DNA of 64,000 bases from Planctomycetota bacterium (GTDB lineage Bacteria; Planctomycetota; UBA8108; SXIK01): the NCBI GenBank assembly GCA_965223845.1, contig CBDCXR010000004.1, positions 480,001-544,000 on the forward strand, read 5' to 3'. Positions 9,414 to 32,384 of the stretch are shown here, piece after piece. Each line of letters begins with the position of its first letter. Position 1 is the stretch's first letter. Made by a program: the position numbers and the translations under genes. The notes under the pieces are model-generated. The model made no database searches. It was not told the DNA's origin and worked only from the letters and a program-made list of their open reading frames with translations.

Positions 9414-10325
9414 CTAGTCCGCGGACTCGAGGAGGCTCCCCGTCTCGGTCCGCGTCGGGATCGAGGGGATCGCGCCCGGGCGAGTCGTGCTCAGTGCGGC
9501 GGCCGCCGAGGCGAAGCGCATTGCGGCGGCGAGCTTCGTGCCTCGGTCGAGCTCGGCGGAGAGGACGCCGACGAAAGTATCGCCGGCGCCGGTGGCGTCG
9601 ACCGACTGCACCCGGAGGGGCGGGACGTGGACGGGATCGCCGCCCGAGCGGGCGAAGTAAGCCCCTCTCGAGCCGGCGGTGACGACGACGAGGGTCGACT
9701 CGAGCTTGGCACTCAGTCTCTCCGCGAGCTCTGCGGTCGCGCCCGAGTCGTCGGCGAGGAGCGAGCCGGCCTCCAGCTCGTTCGCAACGAGAACGTCGAC
9801 CGCGCGGAGGACGTCCGGGGGTAGGCGGGTGGCCGGCGCCGCATTGAGGACGATCGTCGCTCGCCCGGCGCGCGCGACGTCGATCGCCCGAACGACGGCC
9901 TCGATTGGGATCTCGAGCTGAAGGACGACCACTCGCGCGCCGAGAAGCGCCTCCCTCGAATCTGCGATCGCCGCCGCGTCGAGGCGCCGGTTCGCCCCTG
10001 ACGAGACGACGATCTGATTCGCGCCCCGTCTGTCGACCGCGATGAGGGCAGCGCCCGTCGACGCACCGTCGATCACCCGGACGGCGTCGACGTCGATGCC
10101 TTCCTCGGCGAGGACGCTTCGCATGGCGCGTCCCGCCTCGTCCGATCCGACCGCCCCGACGAAGCGAACCCCTGCGCCCGCCCGCGCGGCGGCGACGGCC
10201 TGGTTCGCGCCCTTCCCTCCCGGAACCGCGGCAAGGTCGCCGCCGATGACGGTTTCGCCGGGCTTGGGAAGATGCGGTACGACACTGACAAGGTCGCGAT
10301 GAATGCTGCCGACGACGGTGATCAA
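9414..10325 (-). CDS. rbsK: Ribokinase (PfkB family)
   Basis: GGKGANQAVAAAR, QLEIP, NELE and DATGAGDTFVG signatures. Confidence 0.93.
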   Translation of the reverse strand: MITVVGSIHRDLVSVVPHLPKPGETVIGGDLAAVPGGKGANQAVAAARAGAGVRFVGAVGSDEAGRAMRSVLAEEGIDVDAVRVIDGASTGAALIAVDRRGANQIVVSSGANRRLDAAAIADSREALLGARVVVLQLEIPIEAVVRAIDVARAGRATIVLNAAPATRLPPDVLRAVDVLVANELEAGSLLADDSGATAELAERLSAKLESTLVVVTAGSRGAYFARSGGDPVHVPPLRVQSVDATGAGDTFVGVLSAELDRGTKLAAAMRFASAAAALSTTRPGAIPSIPTRTETGSLLESAD

Positions 10326-10580
10326 GAGTCGGGTCCAAGTCCGGATGCGGAGCGACGATCGGCCTTGCAGGAAACGCCCTTGATGGGCGGTTTCGGAGCA
10401 GAGTCGAACCGAGCCTGGCGGGAGCTGCCGCCCGCTTGTTCGAGGGTTGTATTTTCGGACTCTCCCGGTTCAAATCGCAACTTCGCTCTCGACCGAGAGT
10501 CCTTCGCGACGCGGTGAGGAATCGAACTCCGAGCGGTGGCGACGCCGCAAAAAACTCGCCGCGGAAACCTTGGGGGATCG

Positions 10581-12767
10581 ATGTACACCGAGCTGAAAGA
10601 ATACGCGGCGGCGAACGACCTCGATCGGTTTGAAGACCGCTGGATGGAAGCCTTGGGCGCGGGAGACCTCGAGTCGTCTGCGATGGAGGCTCTACTCGAT
10701 GCGGCCGAGGTGGCGCTCGATCGGCAGGATTCGACCCATCGACTGGCGACTCTTCTCGAGCTCCTCTGTGCCTGCATCGCCGAAGATACGACCGCGAGGG
10801 TGACGCTGCGTCTCTTTTGGCATCTCCTCCGGTTCTTCCCGGAGAATCGTTCGTACCTGAACATCTTCTGCGAGGCGTACGTCCAGGTGTACCCCGTCGC
10901 ATCGCCGGAGCGAGCGTTTTTCGACGCCGCTTCCGTCGCGCAGAGCTCGGACGTCGCCGGCTCGCTCGCTCGACTCGACAGCCTCCTTCGCTATCGCGAG
11001 GGGGCCTTCGTCTTCCACCGCTCCGGGTGGGGCGTCGGACGGGTTCTTAGTGTCGACCCCTTCCTCAAGCAGGTGCGTGTCGACCTCGAGGAGAAGAAAG
11101 ACCACCGGATCGCGATCGACGTCGTCGATTCGATTCTGGATTTCCTCGAGCCCGATAGCTTCCAGGCGCTCCTCCTCTCGAACGTCGAGGGGCTCCATCG
11201 GCTGCGTGACGAAGATCCGGTGGGGCTCGTGACCAAGGTTCTCGACGCCTTCGGAAACCCGCTCGGCGTCAAGGATATCAAGTCGCATCTCGTACCGGCG
11301 ATCGTACCGACGAAGGACTGGACGAAGTGGTGGAACAAGACGAAGGCGCTTCTCCGCGACTCCGGGTATTTCCGCGTCGGTGACCGCGCGCCGCATCGGG
11401 TCGAGAAGCTCGAGTCGGCGATCAGCTACGCCGACGAGCTGATCCGCGACTACTACGCCTCATCGTGGCTCGAAGCACGCAAGGTCGCGAAACAGGCCGC
11501 GCGCAAGTCGGGCGGAGAGTACAAGGATGCCTGGGAGAAAATTCGCCCGCACCTTCTCGAGCTGAAGGAAGGCGATGACGTCTCCGTCGCGATCGACGCT
11601 GCGACCATTTACGAGCGCGGTGAGATCGGCGGCAGCGGCGTGCTCGCCGAAGTGCTCGCACGCTTCGGTGTCGAAAAGCTCGCCGACGCGATTCAGGGGC
11701 TGCCGGGCCCCGAAGCGCAGCGACGGGCCGCAAACGCGCTCGTGGATGCCCGTCCCGAAGACTGGCAGAACGTCGCGCGCGCGCTCGTTCTCGGACGGAG
11801 CGATGTCTTGCGGAACGTCGCGCTCGGTCTTCTCGAAGAGCGAGCACCGGAGGCCGCGCTCGAAGTGGTCGGCTCGGTTGCGGCGAACCCGCCAGCGGCG
11901 TTCGAGGCGTTTTGTTGGCTGCTGAACGTCCACGTCGCCGGATCGGATCGACCCGGCCTCGAGCCGTTTCGCCAGCGGACCTCGAGGGAGCTCGTGCGAA
12001 TGCTCCTCGACCTCTGCGACCACCAGGAGCATCGAGCGAGCCGAGTCGAGCGAACCGTCGTGAAGGAGGCGTTCGGCCGGATTCAGCAGTGCCTCGGTGC
12101 GAAGGACGGAGACTTTTTCGCCGAGGGGATTCGAGGGTTCAAGAAGTCGGAGCTCGTCGCTCTCTACTCGCGCATCGTCAACTACGACGACATTCTCCCC
12201 GATCTCAAAGCCGAGCTGCTCGGCCGTATCAGCGAGCAGGCGCCCGAGCTCGAGCAGGAAGAGCCGGCGATGCCGTGGGAGGAAAACTGCATCTACACCA
12301 CGTCGGCCGGACTCGAAAAGCGCCGCGAGCAGTTTCGCGAGATCATGGAAACGAAGCTCCCGAAGAACTTCGAGGAGATCGGTCGCGCAGCGAGCTTCGG
12401 CGACCTCTCGGAAAACGCCGAGTACACCGCGGCGCTGGAGACGCGCGATCAGCTCACGCGGCAGGCGAAGCAGATCGAGGAGGAGCTCGAGATCGCGAAG
12501 ATCATCGAGCCCGCTTCGGTGAATGCGGAGTCGATCGCGCTCGGCACGCGCGTTTCAGCGTCGGAGGTCGAGAGTGGCGAAAACAAGATCTACACCATTC
12601 TCGGTCCGTGGGACGGCAGCCCGGAAGAAGGCGTTCTCAACTACCATTCGCCACTCGCTAGGGCTCTGTTCGGACGGCGCGCGGGCGAGCAGGTCGACAT
12701 CGAGCTGCCAGGCGGGTCCTTGAGCCTTAAAATCGAAAGGATCAGCTCGCACTTCGACGAGGAGTGA
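10581..12767 (+). CDS. greA: Long-form transcription elongation factor GreA with a large N-terminal extension
   Basis: C-terminal GDLSENAEY, YTILGPWD and SPLARAL motifs. ~570-aa N-terminal region (FHRSGWGVGRV, WTKWWNKTK) as in PVC/spirochaete GreA. Start MYTELK at 10581. Confidence 0.9.
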   Translation: MYTELKEYAAANDLDRFEDRWMEALGAGDLESSAMEALLDAAEVALDRQDSTHRLATLLELLCACIAEDTTARVTLRLFWHLLRFFPENRSYLNIFCEAYVQVYPVASPERAFFDAASVAQSSDVAGSLARLDSLLRYREGAFVFHRSGWGVGRVLSVDPFLKQVRVDLEEKKDHRIAIDVVDSILDFLEPDSFQALLLSNVEGLHRLRDEDPVGLVTKVLDAFGNPLGVKDIKSHLVPAIVPTKDWTKWWNKTKALLRDSGYFRVGDRAPHRVEKLESAISYADELIRDYYASSWLEARKVAKQAARKSGGEYKDAWEKIRPHLLELKEGDDVSVAIDAATIYERGEIGGSGVLAEVLARFGVEKLADAIQGLPGPEAQRRAANALVDARPEDWQNVARALVLGRSDVLRNVALGLLEERAPEAALEVVGSVAANPPAAFEAFCWLLNVHVAGSDRPGLEPFRQRTSRELVRMLLDLCDHQEHRASRVERTVVKEAFGRIQQCLGAKDGDFFAEGIRGFKKSELVALYSRIVNYDDILPDLKAELLGRISEQAPELEQEEPAMPWEENCIYTTSAGLEKRREQFREIMETKLPKNFEEIGRAASFGDLSENAEYTAALETRDQLTRQAKQIEEELEIAKIIEPASVNAESIALGTRVSASEVESGENKIYTILGPWDGSPEEGVLNYHSPLARALFGRRAGEQVDIELPGGSLSLKIERISSHFDEE

Positions 12768-17708: not shown

Positions 17709-18491
17709 CTACTCGTCGTCCGATCCGACGGCCGGGTCGTAGAGGAGCGTCTCCATGGTGAGCTCGGCCGACACACGCTCCTTCGCGACGACGTAGAGCT
17801 TTTCGGCGGCCTGCCGGATGTAGGCGCGGGCTTCGTCCTCGCTGCGCTCGAGAAAGCGACGAAAGTAGCTTGTCGCGAGGAGGAAGTTGCCGTTTCGGCG
17901 GCAGAGCTCGGCGACGAGGAAGACCATGTGCGGATCTTTTTCGTAGCGGAGGTCCTGACGAAACTTCCGGATCGCGCCCGTCAGGTAGCGTTTGCGCAGC
18001 CGCTTCCGAGTCCGCTCCGGCAGCTTGACGGATGGAGGGATCCGCAGGCACCAGTACGCCCGAAGGAGACGCTCGCCTTGATCGCGCGCCGAGAGGTCGA
18101 TCGCCTCGGCGATCTTCGCCGCCCAGTGGTATTGCACGTGAGGGAGCGGAGTGCGTCGACAGCGGCGTACCGATCGCGCCGGTCGGGCGTCGTCGCTAGA
18201 CGGTCCCGCGCGGGTCCCACTCTTCTTGTCGTCGTCGACGAGAAGCGGGATCGTCTCCTCGATGAGCTGCTCCTTGAGCTCGTCGGAAAGATCCCGCAGG
18301 AAGTCGCGCGTGTATCCGGAGTACCGGCAGTGATGACAGGTGTGCACTTCCGCCTGGATGACGTGCTTCCCGCGCATGCGGACGAAGAGGTCGGAGTCTT
18401 GTCCCGTTGCGAAGCCGCTTCCCACATCGCGCAACCGAAGCCGGTTGGCGCACAGAGGGCAGCTCGCTTCGATCGTCGACCAGACAACCAT
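17709..18491 (-). CDS. DUF2225-like zinc-ribbon plus helical protein
   Basis: CPLC...QDSDL...CHHCRY zinc-ribbon pattern, then LRAYW and a TPR-like AELCRRNGNF..A..YF. Confidence 0.75.
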   Translation of the reverse strand: MVVWSTIEASCPLCANRLRLRDVGSGFATGQDSDLFVRMRGKHVIQAEVHTCHHCRYSGYTRDFLRDLSDELKEQLIEETIPLLVDDDKKSGTRAGPSSDDARPARSVRRCRRTPLPHVQYHWAAKIAEAIDLSARDQGERLLRAYWCLRIPPSVKLPERTRKRLRKRYLTGAIRKFRQDLRYEKDPHMVFLVAELCRRNGNFLLATSYFRRFLERSEDEARAYIRQAAEKLYVVAKERVSAELTMETLLYDPAVGSDDE

Positions 18492-18960: not shown

Positions 18961-20313
18961 ATGTTTCGCCGTTCAGAATTATTCCGTCGGTTCGCGGCTA
19001 ACGCAAAGCTCGGCGCGTTCGCGTCGTGCGTTCTCGTTGCTTGCGCGGGTGCGCGGGAACGGCCCGTTCTGATCGAGTTCGACGTGGTCACCGCTTCCAG
19101 TTCAACGGACGCGGACCTCGACGACTCGGACGAAAACGAGGTCGAGGTGGCTGCGGAGAGAGCGCGAGTGCGACTTTACTTACGCGGGCCCTTCTGTCGA
19201 GTCGAAGCGAGCGTTCGGAGCTCGGCCAGCGCGTCCTCGGGCGGTGCGGCGCCCGCGGCGGTGGCGATCTACGACGATGAGACCAGGGTCGTGTGGGAAG
19301 CTCGTCGCGGGCGAGAATTCGAGCGGCGCGGCTACGACGTGCTCGACTACGACGCGGCCACGCGAAGGCGGCGCGGTCGGATCGATCTCTACTCGCTGGC
19401 GATCGAGCGGCGTGGCGAGTGGGAAGGCACCTGGTCGGATCTCAACGGCTCCGGGCAGTCGCGCGAGATCGATCGGGCTCGGTTCGGCGGACGTCCGGCG
19501 CGCGTGGTTCGCCTCGCGGTCGAGCCCGGAGTCTATTGGGACGTCACGCTCGCCGCCGGCGACGTGGCCCCGGTCGACCCGGCGTTCGCGACGCCGAAGA
19601 TCCTGAGCGGTGTGTTCGGCGTCGCGCCCGGGCGAGCGGGCCGACTCGCGACGGCGCTCCGAGAGCTCCCGGTCGCCGTCGACGGCTACGTCTTGGGGGA
19701 CGACGGCATCGAGTCGGCGTTCGCCGCGACCCTCTTCGATGTCCGACCCGCTGCGCCGGCATCCGACTCCCTCTGGCCGGACGACGCTACACTCGCGCGC
19801 CGCGAGGAACTCGATCGCCGTCTCTCCTCGACGGATGTGCTCCTCGATGCGGTGTCGCGTCCGGACGCTCTGTCCACGCCGGTGACACTCAGCGAGCTGT
19901 GCCTCCGCATCGCGGCGCGGATCGAAATCGACGACGTGACGCGGGTCGTCGATCTCGTCGCCGGCGCGGAGCACGAATCCGAACGCGTCGAGCTCGCCCG
20001 CGCGCTCCTCCGCCGATTCCCGCGCCGGGCTTGGGTGGCCCTGCGGCCGAGTCTCGACTCGCCTCGGATCGAGCTGGCCGCGGGACTAGTCGAGGCCCTC
20101 ATCGCCGAGCGCCATCCGGCCGCACGCGCAAGTCTTCTTCGCGTTCTCCGCCAGCGCGACCGCTGGGCGTCCGATGTGCCACCGGAGGAGATCGAGCGCT
20201 GGGCACTCGGCCATCTCCGCGTCCTGAGTGGCATTCCTCTTGCACGTCTTCTCGAGCAGCTCCCCAGCGGGGCAGACGCCGAGCTCGAGACGTGGCTCGC
20301 ATCCGAGGAGTGA
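18961..20313 (+). CDS. Hypothetical probable lipoprotein with a C-terminal helical/HEAT-like region
   Basis: Long ORF with coding-like codon usage. Candidate lipobox LVAC near the ATG at 18961. Start uncertain. Confidence 0.6.
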   Translation: MFRRSELFRRFAANAKLGAFASCVLVACAGARERPVLIEFDVVTASSSTDADLDDSDENEVEVAAERARVRLYLRGPFCRVEASVRSSASASSGGAAPAAVAIYDDETRVVWEARRGREFERRGYDVLDYDAATRRRRGRIDLYSLAIERRGEWEGTWSDLNGSGQSREIDRARFGGRPARVVRLAVEPGVYWDVTLAAGDVAPVDPAFATPKILSGVFGVAPGRAGRLATALRELPVAVDGYVLGDDGIESAFAATLFDVRPAAPASDSLWPDDATLARREELDRRLSSTDVLLDAVSRPDALSTPVTLSELCLRIAARIEIDDVTRVVDLVAGAEHESERVELARALLRRFPRRAWVALRPSLDSPRIELAAGLVEALIAERHPAARASLLRVLRQRDRWASDVPPEEIERWALGHLRVLSGIPLARLLEQLPSGADAELETWLASEE

Positions 20314-20477
20314 TTCCGGAGTCCTCCCGGACGCCCGTCCCGACGGCGCCGTCGTCGCTCGCTCGGGCGCGGTCCGCGATGTCGATCGCGAACCGCGTGC
20401 GTTGCGACAGAAGGACCACTCACTCCGGCGCGGCCCTCCGCGGCGGACTCGAACAACCGCAGCATCAGGTGAAAGAA

Positions 20478-21572
20478 ATGTCCAAGACCGCGAAGAAGGG
20501 CGCCTCCTCTTCCGCCACGGCGACCGCCGTTCGGCTCGGCATCGACCTCGGAACCAACAGCTCCGTCGTCGCTGCGGCGCACGACGGGAAGCCCGTCAAG
20601 ATCGAGGACGACGTCGTACGCTCAGTGGTAGGCTTCCCGAAGGCCGGAATCATCCCCGGGATCCTGCCGAACGACTCCGAGGTTCTCTTCGGCGACGAGG
20701 CGATCGACTACCGGCTCCACCTCGACCTCAAGTGGCCTCTCAACGAGGGTGTTGTCGACGATCTCGAAGTCGCGCGCACCTTCGCGGGGCACCTCCGCAG
20801 CATCGTCGACAAGACGGGAAAGAACACGCTCTGGGGTGTCGTCGGTGCGCCCGCGAACGCCACGGCCGAGCAACAGAAAGCGCTTCGCTCGACCATGGCG
20901 GGCGTCCTCGAGCGGCTCCTGGTCGTTCCCGAGCCGTTCCTCGCGGCGATGGGACTGCGCGACGACTCGGCGTTCACCGAAAAGGGCGGCGACCCGACGA
21001 AGCACTCGCTGATCGTCGACATCGGCGGCGGAACCACTGATCTTTGCTTGGTCCGCGGCTATTTCCCGACGGCGGACGACCAGATCAGCTACCCGCAGGC
21101 TGGCGGTCACATCGATCATCTCTTCTCCGACGCGCTCGGGCGCCGCTATCCGGATCTGAAGCTCACGCCGGTGACGATCACTCAGCTCAAGGAAGAGCAC
21201 TCGTTCGTCCCGGGATTCGAGCGCGAAGCGAAGGTGAAAGTCTACGTCGACGGCCGCCCGCAGCTCGTCGACTTCACGGCGATCATCGCCGAAGCGTGCG
21301 GCGCGATGGTGCCGATCATCGTCGACGGGATCAAAGAGCTTCTCACGCGCTGCGATTCCGATTCGATCGTGAACGTGATGGAGAACATCATCGTGACCGG
21401 CGGCGGCTCGCAGATCCACGGGATCACCGAGAAGATCCAGGAAGTACTCGTCGCTGACGGGTACGACTGCGCCCGAACGATTCGCCCCAGCGACTACAAG
21501 CGCCTCGTTGCTCAAGGCGCCCTGCGCATCGCCGAGAACGTACGCGACGAGCAGTGGCAGGTGCCGATGTAG
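20478..21572 (+). CDS. Actin-family ATPase, MamK-like (MreB/Mbl superfamily)
   Basis: GIDLGT (phosphate 1), EPF (connect 1), DIGGGTTD (phosphate 2), TGGGSQI (adenosine). SVVGFPK, GDEA, KEEHSFV and GALRIAE...W match MamK rather than MreB as I recall them. Confidence 0.9.
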   Translation: MSKTAKKGASSSATATAVRLGIDLGTNSSVVAAAHDGKPVKIEDDVVRSVVGFPKAGIIPGILPNDSEVLFGDEAIDYRLHLDLKWPLNEGVVDDLEVARTFAGHLRSIVDKTGKNTLWGVVGAPANATAEQQKALRSTMAGVLERLLVVPEPFLAAMGLRDDSAFTEKGGDPTKHSLIVDIGGGTTDLCLVRGYFPTADDQISYPQAGGHIDHLFSDALGRRYPDLKLTPVTITQLKEEHSFVPGFEREAKVKVYVDGRPQLVDFTAIIAEACGAMVPIIVDGIKELLTRCDSDSIVNVMENIIVTGGGSQIHGITEKIQEVLVADGYDCARTIRPSDYKRLVAQGALRIAENVRDEQWQVPM

Positions 21573-21612
21573 TCGGTTCCGGTAACGGAGTCGACGCTCC
21601 GTCCGCGATGCG

Positions 21613-21652
21613 AACGGGCCCCGAGCCGCCCAAGCGGCTCGGGGCCCGTTTT
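21613..21652. terminator. Intrinsic terminator, probably bidirectional, between the actin gene and rpmH
   Basis: 17-bp perfect stem AACGGGCCCCGAGCCGC-ccaa-GCGGCTCGGGGCCCGTT followed by TT. Confidence 0.85.
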
Positions 21653-21722
21653 CGTAGCGGTGGGTTTCCGCGGGTGGTCACCCGCGCGAGAGAAACCCCT
21701 CTACGACGAGAGCAAACTCGCC

Positions 21723-21872
21723 CTACCCGCCGCGGCGCTTCTTGTGGCCAGGGAGCTTCCGGCCGATGCGGCGGCGACGGTTGATCATCTTCCGGCCGCT
21801 CTTCGTTTTCATGCGGTAGCGGAAGCCGCGCTTGTCGCGCTTGACGTTGCTCTTGCGAATTCTGACGTGCAT
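21723..21872 (-). CDS. rpmH: 50S ribosomal protein L34 (49 aa; absent from the supplied ORF track)
   Basis: Manual translation: MHVRIRKSNVKRDKRGFRYRMKTKSGRKMINRRRRIGRKLPGHKKRRGG. Contains the L34 signature GFRxRMxTxxGRxxxxRRRxxGR. GGAG upstream. Confidence 0.92.
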   Translation of the reverse strand: MHVRIRKSNVKRDKRGFRYRMKTKSGRKMINRRRRIGRKLPGHKKRRGG

Positions 21873-22023
21873 GGTTCTGAACTCCGCGGCCGCGCGGGAG
21901 GCGCGCTGGCTCGCCGTTGTTCTCCGAGGTGGCGAGCCTCAGGGGACCACGATCGGAGTGCCCTCTCGCGGGAAGCTGCCTCGCTCGGACGGACGGAGCA
22001 TTATAGGGAGGGCGTTCGCGGGG

Positions 22024-23046: not shown

Positions 23047-23357
23047 GATCGACTCGATGGGGTCCCAGTCCGCGGAGGTCGAGGGTCGGTGGGGGGACGG
23101 CTCTCGAGAGGCACGTCGGCGGATGGCGATCGAGCCTGTGTTATAGCGCGGCGGCGCCCCGAGTCCACCGTCCGCGGTGTCTTGGCCGCTCGATCTCCGC
23201 CGCGGCCGCTCCGGCCTTCCCCCGTCCGGGGATTGTTCGAGTCGCCGGCTCGCGCCAGCGACGGGCGCGCATGCTAAAATCGACCGCTCACCCGGAATCG
23301 TACCCTCGTCGACCGTCGCGAGCGCGTACCGCCGACTTCCTCGGAGGACCCGACGAC

Positions 23358-26300
23358 ATGACTGCAGCGACCGTTCCGCCCGCGCGCGGCGATTCGAGGG
23401 TGATTCGATACGCCCACGAATGGCTCCGGCCGGCCGCCGTGTGCGTTGCTGCGGTGTGCGGGGCGATTCTCGCGGGATGCGATTCTTCGTCTCGTTCCTC
23501 CGGCGTGCGCGCTGCCCTTCGGATCAACGAGGTGATGGCGCGGAACAGCTCCACGGTTCTCAGGGACGACTCGGGGCGGCCGATCGTCCAGGACTGGGTC
23601 GAGCTCTACAACGACGGCCCGGAACCGCTGACGCTCCAGGGCTACAGTCTCACGGACAACCCGAGGCGCCGCGGGCGCTTCCGCTTTCCGCCGGGCGCGG
23701 AGATCGCCCCGGGCGAGTTCGTCGTCGTCTTCGTCTTCAATCGCGACCGCTGCGAGGAGCGGTGCGACGACCGCCTCGCGACTTGCCTCACCCCTCGACC
23801 CGGCGAAGACGAGCCCTCGCAGGACGACATCGCCGAGTGCGAGCGCGCCTACGATACTTGTCTCGAGTCGTGCGAGCCGGTCGGGTTCATTGCCGATTTC
23901 GGGCTCGGTGGATCGGAACGCATGTATCTCTACGACGGCGACGCGCTCGTCGATCAGGTCGGCGTAACGGAGATCCCGCCCGACGTCTCCGTCGGCCGAT
24001 TCCCGGATGGATCCGGTGGCTTCGAAGTGATCTACGCGGGGCCGACTCCGGGAACGGGCAACCGTCCCGCCGGAGTGCCTCCGCCCGCGATCTCCGCTTC
24101 GCTCAGTCCCGAGGCGTTGATTCCGGACTGCGGCGAAGACGTGACTCTCAGCTTCAGCGTCAGCGTCGAGACGGCGGACGTCGAGGCGGTCGATGTCGTC
24201 GTCGAGCTCGCCGACGTCGCGCAGTGCGGCGACCTCGTTTCGGACGAGGATTTCGCGCTCGCCGTCGAGCCGGAGTTCGTCGAAGCGGTGACCGGAGAGC
24301 CGTTCGAAGTGCCCGATCTCAACAACGAGCTGCGTACGGTCGAGCCGACCGTGTTCACCTATTCGGCGACCCTCCCGGGATCGCCGTGCGGGACGACGCG
24401 GCGCGCGCGGATTCGGGCCCGCGCGGACGAGGTCGAGACCGTCGAGCGTCTCGGGTGCTTCACTTGGGCGGAAGACCAGAGCCTCGCGCCGGTTCGCATC
24501 AACGAGTACGTCCCGCGGAACACGGAGCTCGTATTCACGTACCAGCGCGCGCGGTTCATTCGTGCGGGTCAGATGGATCCCGATCCGCCCACCCCGGCGT
24601 CCGATTGGTTTGAGCTCGTCAACTACGGCGACGCCCCGATCGATATTTCGCGCTTCGGGATCGCGAGCCTCAACGATTGGGAAGAGTTCTTGAGCGGCCA
24701 GGTCGACGTCCTCGACACGTGGACGCTCGTCGACCCCGATCCTCTCTCCGAGGAGACGCCCGAGCAGGTCATCATCGACCCGGGTTGTTTTCTCGTCGTT
24801 CTCGCCGACAACGACGGCGGGAGCGACGCGGATCAGTTCCGCCAAACCTATCGCCTCTTCGATCCTGAGATGTTCCGCGGCGACCTCGGTTGTCAGCTCA
24901 CCGATTCGAGCGGCGACCCGTATTTTTTCTCCACCGACTTCGGCCTCGACGCGACGACGCAGAATCGCATCGACGGTTTTGTCTTCGTCGACGAAAACGG
25001 TCGCCGACTCGACGCGGTCGAGCTCGCGTTCGAGAGCATTCCGCCGGATCTGGTCGACGAAACCGGCGCCGTGCCGACCGTGCGCGCGAACGTCGCCCTC
25101 GGGCGACTGCCCCTTGCCGACGAAACCTTCAGTGAAGACCTCGTGCCGGGCGAGTTTCTCTGCGTACCGACCCCGGGCGCGGACAATACACTCCTCTGCG
25201 ACGTCCCGCCGCGCTTCGATCCCGATGTGCTCGTTCTTCCCCGGAACCCTCGGGCCGGCGAGCCCGTGGCCGTCTCCGGGAAGGTCAACTTCGACCTCGA
25301 TACGACGAGCGTCGACCAGCGCTTCGAGGTCCACTATCGCGTCGAGCGCGCCGGCGGCGGTGCGTCGGACGAGGTGCTCACTCTCGCCGACGACGCCCTC
25401 GTGCTCGAAGAATCCGCGGACCAGACGGACGCCGCCGCCGCGAGTCGACTCTACGACTTCGTCGCCACGTTCCCGGGATTCGAGAGCGGAGACTTCGTGA
25501 CGTTCTTCTGCTTCGCGCAGGACCTGTCCGACGGTGGCGACAACTCGGAGGTGTTCTTCACTGAAGACGACACCCCGCGCAGCTCGATGCGTTTCGTCGT
25601 CGGATTCGAGCCGCCGGCGGACCACCCGCGGATCACCGAAGTGCTGCCGCTCAATCAGACGATCGTCTTGCCGCCGTTCGTCGACGTGCCGATGCCACCG
25701 ACTCCCGACTACGCCGAGATTCACAACCCGAGCGGGGAAGCTTGGGATCTCAGCGGATACTACCTCGCGCAGGTCGACCCGACGAGCGAGCGGCGCAGCG
25801 TGCTCTCTCGTCCGCGCGAGTGGCGGTTTCCCGACGGGACGCTGCTCCCGGCCGGCGAGTCGCTCCCGCTCTACTTCGGTGGGGTCGGGGAGGAGTTCCT
25901 CGAGGTCGATTTCAACCTGGGGTGTCCCGAGTCGCTGTTCCTCATCGCTCCGGACGATGCCGCGCGCGGCGCGCACTCGGTGATCGACTCGGTCGCGTGG
26001 GGACTGAATCTATGCAACGATCTCCCCGATCGTTCCTGGGCGCGCCCCTGCGAGAGTTTCGATACGTTCGCAGTCGTCGACCCGTCTCCCGCCGAGCTCA
26101 ACTCCGCTGCCTGGCTGCCGCCGCTCTTTCACTCCGCGTATCATACGGACGTCCAGAACGTCGCGGCACTTTGCGTTTCTCCGACGTCGTTTGTGACGCT
26201 GAACGCGCACGTCTTCGTCGACGCGGCGCTCGCTGCCTCGCTCGAGTCTCAGCGCTCCGAAGACGTGATCGACTCGGCGGTGTTCGTCGTCGACTACCGG

Positions 26301-27221
26301 GACGGAAGTGATCCGCGCTTGATCCCCGCTTCGCGGCTCGATGTGACGTGCCCCGCCGCGGGCGACTGCGTCGAGGCCCCCGAGGGCTACCGGAGCGTCC
26401 GTCTGTCGACGCTCCTCGACGATCTCTCGCAGCGATCGATCGGCGCGTCCATCGAGTACGAGATCCTCGCGACGACCGCGTGCGGGCGGATGGTCGCGGG
26501 CGGTCCCTTCAGTGTCGGAACGAGCGCCGGCGACAAGCCGGCGGTCGTGATCAACGAGATCAACCTCGCCGCGCCGCTCCCGGGCGCGCCGGACGAGCCG
26601 CGGGCCTGGGTCGAGCTTCTCAACCTCGAGGGCGGCGAAGTCGACGCTTCCGGGATGTTCCTTACCGATGACCTCCAGGTATCGCAGAAGGTCGTCGTAC
26701 CGGACGGAACCACGCTCTCGGCGGGCGGATTCGCAGTCGTTCCGATCGACGGCGCGAGCGGAATGGATCTCACGGGTCGGGACGGTGAGCTCGTCCTCAT
26801 CGACTCCGTTGCGAGAGGAAGCTGCGGGGTGGACTCCTTCGCGTTCGATTATCGCGAGCGAGAGCCATCGACCTCGCTCGGCCTGCTTCCCGACGGAATG
26901 GGAGACCCGGTTGAGCTCGAGCGCCCGAGCCCCGGTGCGCCGAACGACAGCTCGGCCCCCGTATTCCTCCGCGGCGATGCGGACGAGGACGGGAGGCTCA
27001 CCGTGTCCGACATGATTCGGATCCTCTCCATTCTCTTCGATGACGATGCGGAACGACCGGCGTGCGACGACGCGCTCGACGCCGATGACGACGGTCGCAT
27101 CGCGGTGAACGACTCGCTCTTCATCGGCAACTTTCTCTTCCAGGACGGTGACCCGATCCCGCCGCCGTATCCCGAGCCCGGACCCGATCCGACGCCGGAC
27201 GACCTCGAGTGTCGTCCTTAG
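23358..27221 (+). CDS. Large lipoprotein with ~4 lamin-tail domains and a C-terminal dockerin-like module
   Basis: GGAGG upstream of ATG 23358. Lipobox LAGC. Four INE/ITE...W/Y-x-E-L/I-x-N units. C-terminal FLRGDADEDG...DALDADDDG...DPTPDDLEC. Confidence 0.85.
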   Translation: MTAATVPPARGDSRVIRYAHEWLRPAAVCVAAVCGAILAGCDSSSRSSGVRAALRINEVMARNSSTVLRDDSGRPIVQDWVELYNDGPEPLTLQGYSLTDNPRRRGRFRFPPGAEIAPGEFVVVFVFNRDRCEERCDDRLATCLTPRPGEDEPSQDDIAECERAYDTCLESCEPVGFIADFGLGGSERMYLYDGDALVDQVGVTEIPPDVSVGRFPDGSGGFEVIYAGPTPGTGNRPAGVPPPAISASLSPEALIPDCGEDVTLSFSVSVETADVEAVDVVVELADVAQCGDLVSDEDFALAVEPEFVEAVTGEPFEVPDLNNELRTVEPTVFTYSATLPGSPCGTTRRARIRARADEVETVERLGCFTWAEDQSLAPVRINEYVPRNTELVFTYQRARFIRAGQMDPDPPTPASDWFELVNYGDAPIDISRFGIASLNDWEEFLSGQVDVLDTWTLVDPDPLSEETPEQVIIDPGCFLVVLADNDGGSDADQFRQTYRLFDPEMFRGDLGCQLTDSSGDPYFFSTDFGLDATTQNRIDGFVFVDENGRRLDAVELAFESIPPDLVDETGAVPTVRANVALGRLPLADETFSEDLVPGEFLCVPTPGADNTLLCDVPPRFDPDVLVLPRNPRAGEPVAVSGKVNFDLDTTSVDQRFEVHYRVERAGGGASDEVLTLADDALVLEESADQTDAAAASRLYDFVATFPGFESGDFVTFFCFAQDLSDGGDNSEVFFTEDDTPRSSMRFVVGFEPPADHPRITEVLPLNQTIVLPPFVDVPMPPTPDYAEIHNPSGEAWDLSGYYLAQVDPTSERRSVLSRPREWRFPDGTLLPAGESLPLYFGGVGEEFLEVDFNLGCPESLFLIAPDDAARGAHSVIDSVAWGLNLCNDLPDRSWARPCESFDTFAVVDPSPAELNSAAWLPPLFHSAYHTDVQNVAALCVSPTSFVTLNAHVFVDAALAASLESQRSEDVIDSAVFVVDYRDGSDPRLIPASRLDVTCPAAGDCVEAPEGYRSVRLSTLLDDLSQRSIGASIEYEILATTACGRMVAGGPFSVGTSAGDKPAVVINEINLAAPLPGAPDEPRAWVELLNLEGGEVDASGMFLTDDLQVSQKVVVPDGTTLSAGGFAVVPIDGASGMDLTGRDGELVLIDSVARGSCGVDSFAFDYREREPSTSLGLLPDGMGDPVELERPSPGAPNDSSAPVFLRGDADEDGRLTVSDMIRILSILFDDDAERPACDDALDADDDGRIAVNDSLFIGNFLFQDGDPIPPPYPEPGPDPTPDDLECRP

Positions 27222-29445: not shown

Positions 29446-30309
29446 GTGCCCGCCTTTCGAACCGGTCGCCGCGAGCACAAGTATGAGCTCTCCCCGGCGG
29501 TCGCCGCGGCTCTTCGCGCCGACATCGCTACGCGGCTCCCTCTCTACTCGTACATTCCGGGCCGCACGGAGACCTTCGTGTCGACCGTCTACTTCGATAC
29601 GGTCGATCGCGTTCTCTTTCGCCGCGCGGAGCGTTCGTTCGACGACAATCTAAAGATCCGGGTGAAGGAGTACTTCTACCCGGTCGGGAATTCGGCGAAC
29701 GGGCGGAGCGCCGGGGATGAGCGGATCGTTCGGCGCGAGAACGAGACCATCGAGGGCGGCTTGCTCGTCTCGCCGACCTGCTACGTGGAGCTCAAAGAGC
29801 GAACCGGCGGTGTCGTCACGAAACGTCGGCTGGCACTCCCTAAGGCGCAGGTGCCGCGCTTGTTCGCCGGCGAGGACGTCGCCCCGTTCATCGAGGGTGT
29901 GAACGGCGTCGGCACCCACGGCGCAGGTGTCGCGTCGACCTACTCGCGGCTCTGTCGCGAGCTGAGTCGAGCGCGCGTCGAGTGTTCGTCGATCGTCGTC
30001 TACCACCGCGTCGTCTACCAAGAGTCCGAGTCCGATCTCCGGATCACGTTCGACGACGCGATTCGAGTGTACGCACCGCGTTCGGATCTCTACGATCGGC
30101 ATTCCGCCCTGACTCCCGCCGTGCTCGGGGAGCCGCTGCGACGGCTCGACAAGACGATTCTCGAGATCAAGTGTCCGAGAGAGTATCCGGCCTGGCTCAA
30201 GAGCACCTTGCGGCGCGTTTCTACCAAGCGGCTCTCGAAGTTCACGTCGAGTGTTCGACTCGTCCTCAAATCCGGGAGTCGGCGCCCGGGCGAGGCTGGG
30301 GACGCGTGA
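29446..30309 (+). CDS. VTC-domain (polyphosphate polymerase / TTM fold) protein
   Basis: RREHKY, STVYFDT, KIRVKEY, YVELKER...KRR, YHR, RITFD, ILEIK...PAWL...SKF. Confidence 0.9.
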   Translation: MPAFRTGRREHKYELSPAVAAALRADIATRLPLYSYIPGRTETFVSTVYFDTVDRVLFRRAERSFDDNLKIRVKEYFYPVGNSANGRSAGDERIVRRENETIEGGLLVSPTCYVELKERTGGVVTKRRLALPKAQVPRLFAGEDVAPFIEGVNGVGTHGAGVASTYSRLCRELSRARVECSSIVVYHRVVYQESESDLRITFDDAIRVYAPRSDLYDRHSALTPAVLGEPLRRLDKTILEIKCPREYPAWLKSTLRRVSTKRLSKFTSSVRLVLKSGSRRPGEAGDA

Positions 30310-30611: not shown

Positions 30612-32384
30612 ATGGCCCAGCCCGACGCGGCACCGCCGCCAGTGTTCATCGACTTTGAAGGGATCGATGGGAGCGGCAAGACGACGCTCTCCAATCGACT
30701 TGCCGCGTTTCTCGAGGAGAAGGGAATCCCGGTCCATCACGCGCGGAGCGGCGGTGTCTTTCGCTCAGAGATCTCGAAGGAAATCCGCACCCTGACGCGG
30801 GCGCCGCGCTTCCTGCGAATGAGCGATATCACGGAGCTGATGCTCTACGTCGCTCGCGACACGCAGATGATCGACGAGTTCATCCGGCCGAAGCTTCTGC
30901 CGGGTCACGTCGTGTTCAGCGATCGTTACCTCTACTCGACCATCGTGCACAGCCACCACGCGCGGGGAGTTCCGAGGGAGCAGGTCGACGCGGTGCTCGA
31001 CGTCGCAGCGCGCGGCCTCTGGCCGGATATCGTGATCTACAGCGACGTCGACCCGCTGACGTCGCGGGTGAGAAAGAAGATTCAAAAGGTTCGCGACCGA
31101 CGGCCCCTCGGGGACTTCGGGCGGAAGGGGCTGATGGGGATCGGGTTCCGCGAAGAGATGCGGAACGGCTTTCTCAAGCTCGCCGAAGAGGATCCGGACC
31201 GCTGGATCGTCATCGACAATGCGAACAGCACGATCGAGGAGTCGCTCCAGCGGATCTTCGAACGTGTCGCGACGGTGCTCGAGAGGAAGGGCTACGCCCA
31301 GCTCGAAGATCCGCACTGGGCTGATCTCTCGTCGCCGCGCGAGCGTCCTCAGACTCGTCTCCGGCGGCGCGTGGAGGAACTCCTCGCGATCGAGGACGAC
31401 GCGGCGCGGAGGAGCGCGGCCTACGATCTCTTCTACGAGGAGCTGCGCGCGCTCGCCGACGAGAATCCCGGCTATGTCGGGCTCTATCTGAGCGGGGTGG
31501 CGACGCCCGAGGCACACGAGCTGCGCGAGCGGATTCTCGATCGCGAACCCGCGCTCGTCGCATTCGGTCTGCAGGGCGTGCGGACACCGGAGTCGATGGA
31601 GCTCCGAGAGAAGCTGAAGGATTCGCAGCCGCACTACGTCGCGCGCAGTCTCTCCGGATTCGCCGAAACTCCGGAGGTTGTCGCGATGCGGGAGGCGCTC
31701 GCCTCCGTCGCTCCCGAATACGTGGCGCTCACCGTGCGCGGGGACGACACGCCTCACGCCTGGGAAATCCGCCGGCAGATCGGAAAGAACGCCCCGCGGG
31801 AAGTCTTGATCAGCCTCCGCGGCCTCGATGTCGACCTCGCCTGGGAGTACCGAGACAAGTGGTCGAAGGAGCGGCTGCTGCCGGCGCTTCTCGAGAGTCT
31901 AGGCGGTATCGACACGGAGCGTGCGTGGCGCTGGCGGGATGAACTCTCGGCGATGTACCTACCGTGGGTCCTGATGAGCCTCCGCGGCGTGATGTCGGAC
32001 CGAGCGTGGGATCTTCGCCTCGAGCACGTCCGGCGAGCGCCCAAGATCGTGATCAAGACCATCGGCCGGAGCTCGGATCCGCGCGCCTGGACGCTGCGTG
32101 AAGCCGCGAAGCTCTACGCGAAAGAGGTGCTGGATTCTCTCAGTGGGATCGACAGCGCAGCGGCGTGGAAGCTCCGGCAGGAGCTCCGCGAGAAGTGGCC
32201 CAACACGTGCGTCTCGAGCATCGGCGCGCGCGTTCAGTCCGAGCGAGCGTGGAACTTTCGCTGGGAAATGGTGCGCGCCAATCCGGAGAACCTCCTCCTT
32301 CTCAAGCACATCATGAAGGCGGACCTCCGGACGCTCGAGCTGGACGATGATTGGGACGACGAGGACGAGTCGGATTTTACGTAG
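30612..32384 (+). CDS. tmk: Thymidylate-kinase-family domain fused to a C-terminal helical repeat solenoid (590 aa)
   Basis: FEGIDGSGKTT P-loop, SDRYLYS and WPDIVIYSDVDP in the first ~220 aa, then ten ~27-aa repeats. Confidence 0.8.
   Translation: MAQPDAAPPPVFIDFEGIDGSGKTTLSNRLAAFLEEKGIPVHHARSGGVFRSEISKEIRTLTRAPRFLRMSDITELMLYVARDTQMIDEFIRPKLLPGHVVFSDRYLYSTIVHSHHARGVPREQVDAVLDVAARGLWPDIVIYSDVDPLTSRVRKKIQKVRDRRPLGDFGRKGLMGIGFREEMRNGFLKLAEEDPDRWIVIDNANSTIEESLQRIFERVATVLERKGYAQLEDPHWADLSSPRERPQTRLRRRVEELLAIEDDAARRSAAYDLFYEELRALADENPGYVGLYLSGVATPEAHELRERILDREPALVAFGLQGVRTPESMELREKLKDSQPHYVARSLSGFAETPEVVAMREALASVAPEYVALTVRGDDTPHAWEIRRQIGKNAPREVLISLRGLDVDLAWEYRDKWSKERLLPALLESLGGIDTERAWRWRDELSAMYLPWVLMSLRGVMSDRAWDLRLEHVRRAPKIVIKTIGRSSDPRAWTLREAAKLYAKEVLDSLSGIDSAAAWKLRQELREKWPNTCVSSIGARVQSERAWNFRWEMVRANPENLLLLKHIMKADLRTLELDDDWDDEDESDFT

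Follow-up and report, generated by a model that had tools for sequence, protein, structure and literature searches.

The 64,000-nucleotide stretch of DNA from a Planctomycetota bacterium analysed here (assembly GCA_965223845.1, contig CBDCXR010000004.1, forward-strand positions 480,001 to 544,000; hereafter the window) carries on its plus strand, at 20478..21572, a stop-free frame of 364 residues plus stop (P0001) for an actin homologue. As judged from its sequence, this protein is a BeeR-like actin, its nearest characterised relative being BeeR of the Verrucomicrobia and not MamK or MreB. Beyond the fold, the family placement, the intact ATPase motifs, the synteny and the lack of detected magnetosome genes, all of which are plain from the data given below, we assign a probability of about 80% to the reading that the protein is an ATP-dependent, filament-forming BeeR-like actin of a planctomycetal clade, acting as a stand-alone cytoskeletal element. 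BeeR (Opitutus terrae B1ZZL4; PDB 8R2N) is a MamK-related actin described as 'conserved among the Verrucomicrobiota' (PMC11929497, Bergeron et al. 2025). The O. terrae protein assembles in ATP but not in ADP, and its polymer, of a kind without precedent, is a tube of three strands and about 80 Å; a disordered N-terminal domain of 30-50 residues is named as its hallmark, and it has no known function (PMC11929497). MamK, to which the window protein was also compared, is a cytomotive, ATP-dependent filament former (PMC11929497; 10.1101/817700).

Profile searches with the window actin gave a consistent ranking of families. Pfam recognised only the generic fold (MreB_Mbl, 66 bits; Actin, 34 bits), whereas the best NCBIfam family was BeeR (NF053558, an equivalog model) with 386.6 bits. 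MamK (NF040964; cut-off 400) scored 248.6 bits, and the MreB profiles NF010539 (57.2 bits, cut-off 293) and TIGR00904 (46.7 bits, cut-off 365.75) were not reached either. When solved structures were searched by sequence, the BeeR filament 8r2n was matched over residues 7-362 with an E value of 7.7e-88, as compared with 3.3e-45 for the MamK entries and about 1e-10 for MreB. With 35 homologues as input, AlphaFold gave a model with a predicted local distance difference test score (pLDDT) of 90.1, falling below 50 only for residues 1-14, and a predicted template modelling score (pTM) of 0.86. Searched with Foldseek, this model returned 8r2n_A as the top hit (E 3.7e-43, template modelling scores 0.89/0.92, root-mean-square deviation 2.1 Å, 42% identity), followed by the MamK filament 5ljv_A (E 7.4e-32). 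Identity to MamK is 30-32% in the Foldseek alignments, and identity to the MreB of the same genome is 26%. MreB is a far more distant relative of the window protein than MamK is, and the 'rod shape-determining protein MreB' labels on its public orthologues, which are annotated as 'rod shape-determining protein', are misleading.

The protein has the actin fold and, as in BeeR, intact ATPase motifs: residues D23, G25, E152, D181, G183, T186, D188 and G308-310 are invariant in an alignment of 35 BeeR-like sequences. The initial annotation of this DNA had described the product as a MamK-like actin outside any magnetosome island, and every motif that it listed is found in the translation (SVVGFPK, FGDEAIDYRLHLDLKWPLNEGVV, VPEPF, DIGGGTTDLCLVRGYFPTADDQ, KEEHSFV, NIIVTGGGSQIHG and GALRIAENVRDEQW). 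Its description holds in that the protein is nearer to MamK than to MreB and lies in no magnetosome cluster; it has to be amended in that the closest family is BeeR. The idea of a MamK-like actin without magnetosomes was right but already in print for the Verrucomicrobiota, because BeeR was first found as one of the 'MamK-like actins in non-magnetotactic bacteria' (PMC11929497).

Two length differences in the alignments separate the BeeR-like proteins from the MamK group. After the connect-1 helix the window protein carries an insert, RDDSAFTEKGGDP (residues 161-173; 20958..20996, plus strand), which appears against MamK as an 11-residue gap in the pairwise alignment and as 12 columns in the multiple alignment, and for which the AlphaFold model gives a block-mean pLDDT of 69 over residues 161-170. 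The 12-column insert, of the form R-D/E-D/E ... D-P, is common to the window protein, its orthologues and the verrucomicrobial BeeR proteins, and both the MamK clade and MreB are gapped there. The insert of about 10 residues pointed out in the initial annotation is thus real relative to MamK; it is not peculiar to the window protein, being common to verrucomicrobial BeeR. Read from these alignments, it is a rare change that sets the BeeR-like proteins apart from the MamK group and a signature shared with BeeR; its use as a BeeR criterion is our own, drawn from the alignments, and not a published one. Conversely, rows of the MamK clade have 5-9 extra residues in a domain-Ib loop that is missing from MreB and from the BeeR-like proteins; the window protein shows a 5-residue gap there in the pairwise alignment. 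Matched through the figure legend, this loop would be the MamK cross-strand loop marked in Fig. 1D of PMC11929497.

The wider family was sampled by a HMMER search of 1.84 billion cluster representatives, which retrieved 652 clusters at E<=1e-3, 269 at E<=1e-10 and 92 at E<=1e-30, and 20 cluster representatives were labelled by their NCBIfam scores. Three representatives passed the MamK cut-off of 400 bits (P0279 with 508, P0287 with 425 and P0295 with 412). Among the 10 BeeR-like representatives only P0246 (562 bits) passed the BeeR cut-off of 530; the remaining nine scored 245-506 bits with the BeeR model, in every case higher than with the MamK model.

A tree of 79 rows was built with a quick IQ-TREE search under LG+C20, with the Shimodaira-Hasegawa-like approximate likelihood-ratio test (SH-aLRT) as the only branch support and the MreB of the genome as root; ParM and crenactin were outside its sampling, and its MamK clade is labelled by NCBIfam scores rather than by named reference sequences. 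The MamK clade has 27 rows (SH-aLRT 96) and includes all three representatives that pass the MamK cut-off together with P0122, an actin paralogue from the same genome as the window. The window protein falls in a BeeR-like clade of 51 rows (SH-aLRT 96), which contains a verrucomicrobial BeeR clade of 19 rows (99) and a clade of 28 rows (96). Within the latter, 9 rows are the window protein and its planctomycetal orthologues; the others are a small group and a long-branched 'third paralogue' clade (15 rows) to which P0123, another protein of the genome, belongs. An earlier tree of 66 rows gave the same clades with a largely unresolved base. In these groupings the window protein joins the BeeR-like clade and not the MamK clade, MreB being the outgroup.

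The likeness to BeeR thus covers the best sequence and structure match, the intact ATPase motifs, the connect-1 insert and a C-terminal QWQ motif found in both. Neither protein has the MamK cross-strand loop or a conserved operon partner, and both come from non-magnetotactic members of the Planctomycetes-Verrucomicrobia-Chlamydiae (PVC) group, to which Planctomycetota and Verrucomicrobiota both belong. The window protein differs from BeeR in being planctomycetal, in having a tail of about 17 residues, in the reversed charge at E153 and in the partial replacement of other lateral contacts. With MamK of Magnetospirillum (5JYG, 5LJV) it shares the actin subgroup, MamK being its second-best family and structure; it differs from MamK in having no domain-Ib loop, in carrying the BeeR insert and in falling in a separate clade of the tree, the rooted order of which is left open by the test described below.

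The two regions in which the window protein departs from BeeR were compared residue by residue. In the AlphaFold model the first strand begins at residue 18, and it is preceded by a low-complexity tail, MSKTAKKGASSSATATA (residues 1-17; 20478..20528, plus strand), which is predicted to be disordered. The phosphate-1 Asp is preceded by 22 residues in the window protein; the corresponding medians are 57 for 10 representatives of verrucomicrobial BeeR (range 22-113), 27.5 for 86 planctomycetal orthologues and 20.5 for 18 MamK-clade proteins. The cross-strand residues given for BeeR in PMC11929497 (E149, E153, R157, R242, N246, R252, I277, L284, T307, Q310, N380 and L385) were mapped by hand from the 8r2n alignment and then checked by alignment columns. 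Counted by us along chain 8r2n_A, the 'Arg 252' of the paper falls on a His, with the nearest Arg at 255, and for its 'Asn 380' the Asn is residue 379 and residue 380 is Gln; the mapping of these two residues is uncertain because the numbers in the paper do not match the deposited chain.

Part of the contact surface is retained. R242 corresponds to R222 of the window protein (R or K in 81 of the 86 planctomycetal orthologues), Q380 corresponds to Q359 (Q in 86/86), and I277, L284 and L385 become V257, V264 and M364, in columns that stay hydrophobic among the planctomycetal orthologues (V; L, V or I; and M, L or F, respectively). Other positions have changed in the planctomycetal proteins: E153 is replaced by K134, a charge reversal, with K or R in 83/86 planctomycetal orthologues and E in 30 of the 36 verrucomicrobial rows; N246 is replaced by D226, with D in 86/86; and the column aligned with R255 holds T in 79/86. 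The columns of E149, R157, T307 and Q310 are not kept in the planctomycetal orthologues and are variable within the 36 verrucomicrobial sequences as well. K134 with D226, and R222 with the acidic residue at 358, could form salt bridges across the same surface.

Taking these data together, we propose a cytoplasmic actin-like ATPase whose ATP-bound monomer would polymerise head to tail through the conserved longitudinal contacts of actins and give a parallel, multi-stranded filament. With E152 and the two phosphate loops intact, ATP hydrolysis would make the polymer dynamic, and the short Lys/Ser/Ala/Thr-rich N-terminal tail would lie disordered on the filament surface. The lateral contacts would use the surface of the three-stranded BeeR tube with an altered chemistry, in which K134 takes the place of E153 beside the invariant D226, and R222 is kept facing the acidic residue at 358. 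The filament would be a chromosomal, vertically inherited element that works alongside both the elongasome of MreB and a distinct MamK-like actin rather than replacing them. As for its architecture, a three-stranded tube of BeeR type is our tentative first choice, at somewhat under even odds, and some other multi-stranded form is possible at slightly lower odds.

Several observations weigh against the proposal of a BeeR-like filament. The BeeR score of the window protein misses the curated equivalog cut-off of 530 bits, the N-terminal domain of 30-50 residues that is the published hallmark is not present, and five lateral substitutions are found (E149 to A, E153 to K, R157 to S, T307 to E and Q310 to T); the three-stranded architecture may not hold, since several of the published cross-strand residues differ. 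The tree comes from a quick search supported by SH-aLRT values only, with the MreB root on a long branch, and the approximately unbiased (AU) test keeps a topology that joins the window's 9-row clade with the MamK clade (difference in log-likelihood 8.27, p-AU 0.373), so that the tree does not fix how the BeeR-like and MamK branches are ordered from the root. Finally, no conserved neighbour ties the actin gene to a process. The BeeR-like placement rests on the profile scores, the identities and the shared insert. These same points bear on the idea that a BeeR-like actin builds a filament unlike that of BeeR, two-stranded as in MamK, single or antiparallel, its lateral interface and N-terminal domain having diverged: the nearly fixed K/R at E153, the T in the R255 column, the four unkept columns, a tail of about half the published length and the missed equivalog cut-off all agree with it. 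It is less easily squared with the missing MamK cross-strand loop, with the retention of the hydrophobic plug (I277, L284 and L385 as V, V and M), R242 and Q380, or with the superposition of the monomer model, which is best on the BeeR filament subunit, and we regard it as possible but doubtful.

The remaining explanations depend largely on the genome as a whole, which amounts to 7.93 Mb in 4 contigs and is 91.7% complete. It has four actin-like matches (the window actin, P0122, P0123 and P0124), none of which reaches the MamK cut-off, and this argues against a displaced true MamK organising magnetosomes encoded elsewhere, even if MamK is the second-best family and structure for the window protein, P0122 comes as close as 384 bits, and the AU test is compatible with a sister relation to the MamK clade. 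The magnetosome markers point the same way: in the 91.7%-complete assembly, with no magnetotactic genome among the 14 controls, the MamI model gave 0 matches, MamP at best 24 bits against a cut-off of 300 and MamQ at best 75 against 250, and the magnetochrome domain PF18509 gave 0 matches in a genome of which about 8% may be unassembled. The neighbours of P0122 are not magnetosome genes either, and we consider a displaced MamK extremely improbable. A role as a further shape determinant of MreB type, partnering the machinery of peptidoglycan elongation, would account for the actin fold, for MreB_Mbl being both the best Pfam domain and the only Pfam family that the protein passes comfortably, and for the public annotation of the orthologues. 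However, the MreB models are missed widely (47-57 bits against cut-offs of 293-366), MreB forms a long outgroup branch in the tree, and the genomic context is a different one: the true MreB is P0124 (423.5 bits, cut-off 293), whose gene lies in another part of the genome close to one for PBP2, and neither mreC nor mreD is among the 20 ORFs scanned around the window actin. A role of this kind is very unlikely. A DNA-segregating actin of ParM/Alp type left by a mobile element has in its favour weak matches to Alp7A_like_C (17.6 bits, gathering threshold 22) and ParM_N (17.5 bits, gathering threshold 27.4), both below threshold in Pfam. Against it, the G+C content is even across the window, the actin gene belongs to a syntenic chromosomal block that spans families f1, f2, f3 and f5, and no adaptor or centromere-like gene adjoins it; such an origin has hardly any likelihood.

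The distribution of the gene is that of a planctomycetal lineage. Orthologues (44-70% identity) were found in 16 of 40 relatives, covering every sampled family, with none in 10 genomes of one small-genome genus, and in 6 of 300 other genomes taken as an even phylum sample at E<=1e-80. Homologues at 55-69% identity are named 'Planctomycetes/Planctomycetota bacterium', and the closest named locus is from an 'uncultured Planctomycetia bacterium' (61% identity). In the literature searched, main texts only, no paper was found that describes a BeeR-like actin from the Planctomycetota, the nearest case being saltatorellin; the words 'Planctomycet', 'PVC' and 'operon' do not occur in the BeeR preprint (PMC11929497).

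The open reading frame (ORF) 20478-21572 is a real gene. Its G+C content by codon position (0.66/0.42/0.855) has the pattern of the well-supported genes in this window of 66% G+C, and a Shine-Dalgarno-like AGGTGA (20467..20472, plus strand), read from the sequence, stands 5 nt 5' of the ATG. An in-frame alternative ATG was seen by eye at 20379, 33 codons upstream, with no Shine-Dalgarno-like site; the likely start is 20478 rather than 20379, given the placement of AGGTGA and the fact that the database orthologues begin at an M-x-K equivalent to that of the window actin. No sigma-70-like promoter was found in 20200-21950. Downstream, between the actin stop (21572) and the stop of rpmH (21723), lies a G+C-rich hairpin (21612..21651), a probable terminator shared with the convergent rpmH. 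RNA folding revealed it as a structure of -47 kcal/mol (z = -7.9) with 18 pairs in the minimum free energy fold, 14 bp making up the G+C core stem; none of 200 shuffles (0 of 200) reached this stability. A simple terminator scan did not list it because only 4 U come after it. This probable, shared terminator corresponds to the one that the initial annotation claimed for the gene, and the actin gene appears to be its own transcription unit.

The surroundings of the gene were compared in 13 planctomycetal loci with long flanks. A KpsF-like SIS+CBS gene recurs in 8 distinct loci, and the other members of the conserved block are a giant protein with lamin-tail domains (LTD), a 563-residue protein without assignment, a VTC-domain protein, a thymidylate kinase (Tmk) fusion, a GreA fusion and a 104-residue ORF. 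In the window, the LTD protein has 1316 residues with three lamin-tail-domain stretches (23271-27221, plus strand), the VTC (polyphosphate-polymerase-like) domain protein is at 29446-30309 (plus) and the 590-residue Tmk fusion at 30612-32384 (plus); rpmH (Ribosomal_L34, 28.5 bits) is at 21723-21872 on the minus strand. The GreA fusion is a 743-residue ORF with GreA/GreB domains (10536-12767, plus), also present in the syntenic loci; these domains occupy only its last ~160 residues, the N-terminal region of ~580 residues belongs to no family, and the ORF is full length in the loci of 4 relatives (L057, L059, L062 and L067).

Two genes upstream of the actin gene were examined as candidate partners and set aside. 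A divergent DUF2225 protein with CxxC...CxxC zinc-ribbon motifs (17709-18491, minus strand) keeps the same position in 5 distinct loci of one order (L054-L057 and L062; the matches in L025 duplicate those in L056). A hidden Markov model built from these sequences gave no match in any f5 or f6 locus, nor in the 27 loci from Verrucomicrobiota; confined to one order and missing from distant carriers, the gene was treated as a case of synteny rather than as a functional partner. The fast-evolving ORF next to the actin gene (18961-20313, plus strand, open from 18700) matches no Pfam or NCBIfam family and is conserved in only 2 of the 13 planctomycetal loci (L054 and L055), where identity is 28%. 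Its hydrophobic N-terminal stretch is followed by a conserved Cys, which suggests that the product is an exported lipoprotein, and we rejected it as a probable cytoplasmic partner. The interaction with the upstream gene product envisaged in the initial annotation thus finds no support.

Other statements of that annotation about the neighbourhood fared unequally. Its remark that no mam, mms or mreCD genes flank the actin gene is borne out by the 20 neighbouring ORFs scanned with Pfam, among which there are no Mam, Mms, MreC or MreD families. Its proposal that the filament positions polyphosphate or mineral granules, or remodels membrane, is not supported, the neighbours forming a conserved housekeeping block in which the only polyphosphate-related gene is the VTC ORF, 8 kb away beyond genes on the opposite strand. 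Around verrucomicrobial BeeR, clustering found no ORF family in more than 11 of 27 loci besides the actin gene and ORFs overlapping it. With a conserved block and poorly shared partners, the context points to vertical inheritance and a stand-alone gene, and gives no clue to function.

The two other non-MreB actins of the genome lie outside the window. P0122, a MamK-like paralogue of 371 residues (G000:C4:2154498-2155508; 9909-11024 in locus L072; minus strand), scores 384 bits with the MamK model (cut-off 400) and 195 with the BeeR model, has an acidic C-terminal tail, and is flanked by sugar oxidoreductases, a protein without assignment and a beta-lactamase/dipeptidase fusion. It is widely and tightly conserved in Planctomycetota, with 5542 matches at E<=1e-20, the top 119 others being 72-82% identical; a protein homology search with it retrieved planctomycetal proteins exclusively, no named MamK among them. 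P0122 may be the counterpart of saltatorellin, a MamK-like actin of the Saltatorellota, non-magnetotactic relatives of planctomycetes, that is reported to make filaments on expression in E. coli or M. gryphiswaldense (10.1101/817700). The C-terminus of saltatorellin, ...YWEQLK, taken only from the printed reverse primer, resembles ...DYWKEF... of P0122 and not ...EQWQVPM of the window protein, a weak indication.

The third paralogue, P0123 (G000:C4:7149027-7150091; 10028-11095 in locus L073; plus strand), scores 131 bits with the BeeR model and 109 with the MamK model, and its nucleotide-binding motifs are degenerate (DFGDES for DIGGGT and VDDVF for VPEPF). P0123 may be a copy in decay, or else a partner that does not hydrolyse the nucleotide. 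Orthologues of P0123 occur in 5 of the 40 relatives, all 5 of which carry the BeeR-like gene too; because it is found only in genomes with that gene, the third paralogue could cap the BeeR-like actin or co-polymerise with it. Apart from these, the HMMER search returned what appear to be fused forms, representatives of 700-1232 residues in which a long N-terminal region precedes a C-terminal actin domain of MamK/BeeR type at 31-35% identity (P0276, P0284, P0285, P0292, P0296, P0297, P0301, P0305, P0310, P0311, P0315, P0317, P0321 and P0324).

A broader reading, which we put forward as speculative and rather unlikely, is that some planctomycetes have a multi-actin cytoskeleton made up of MreB, a conserved MamK-like actin, a charge-swapped BeeR-like rigid filament and a degenerate third paralogue, possibly organising the cell plan (membrane invaginations, FtsZ-free division) and not a mineral organelle. 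The BeeR-like actin described here opens no new mechanism, and its role is as obscure as that of BeeR itself. It does extend the BeeR-like family to a second PVC phylum, as a sister group vertically inherited in one planctomycetal lineage. Having kept the ATPase core and the BeeR insert while its tail and part of its lateral interface changed, it is a ready-made variant with which to test the residues that determine strand number, and functional genetics on a BeeR-like actin might become feasible should any relative that is in culture and tractable carry the gene.

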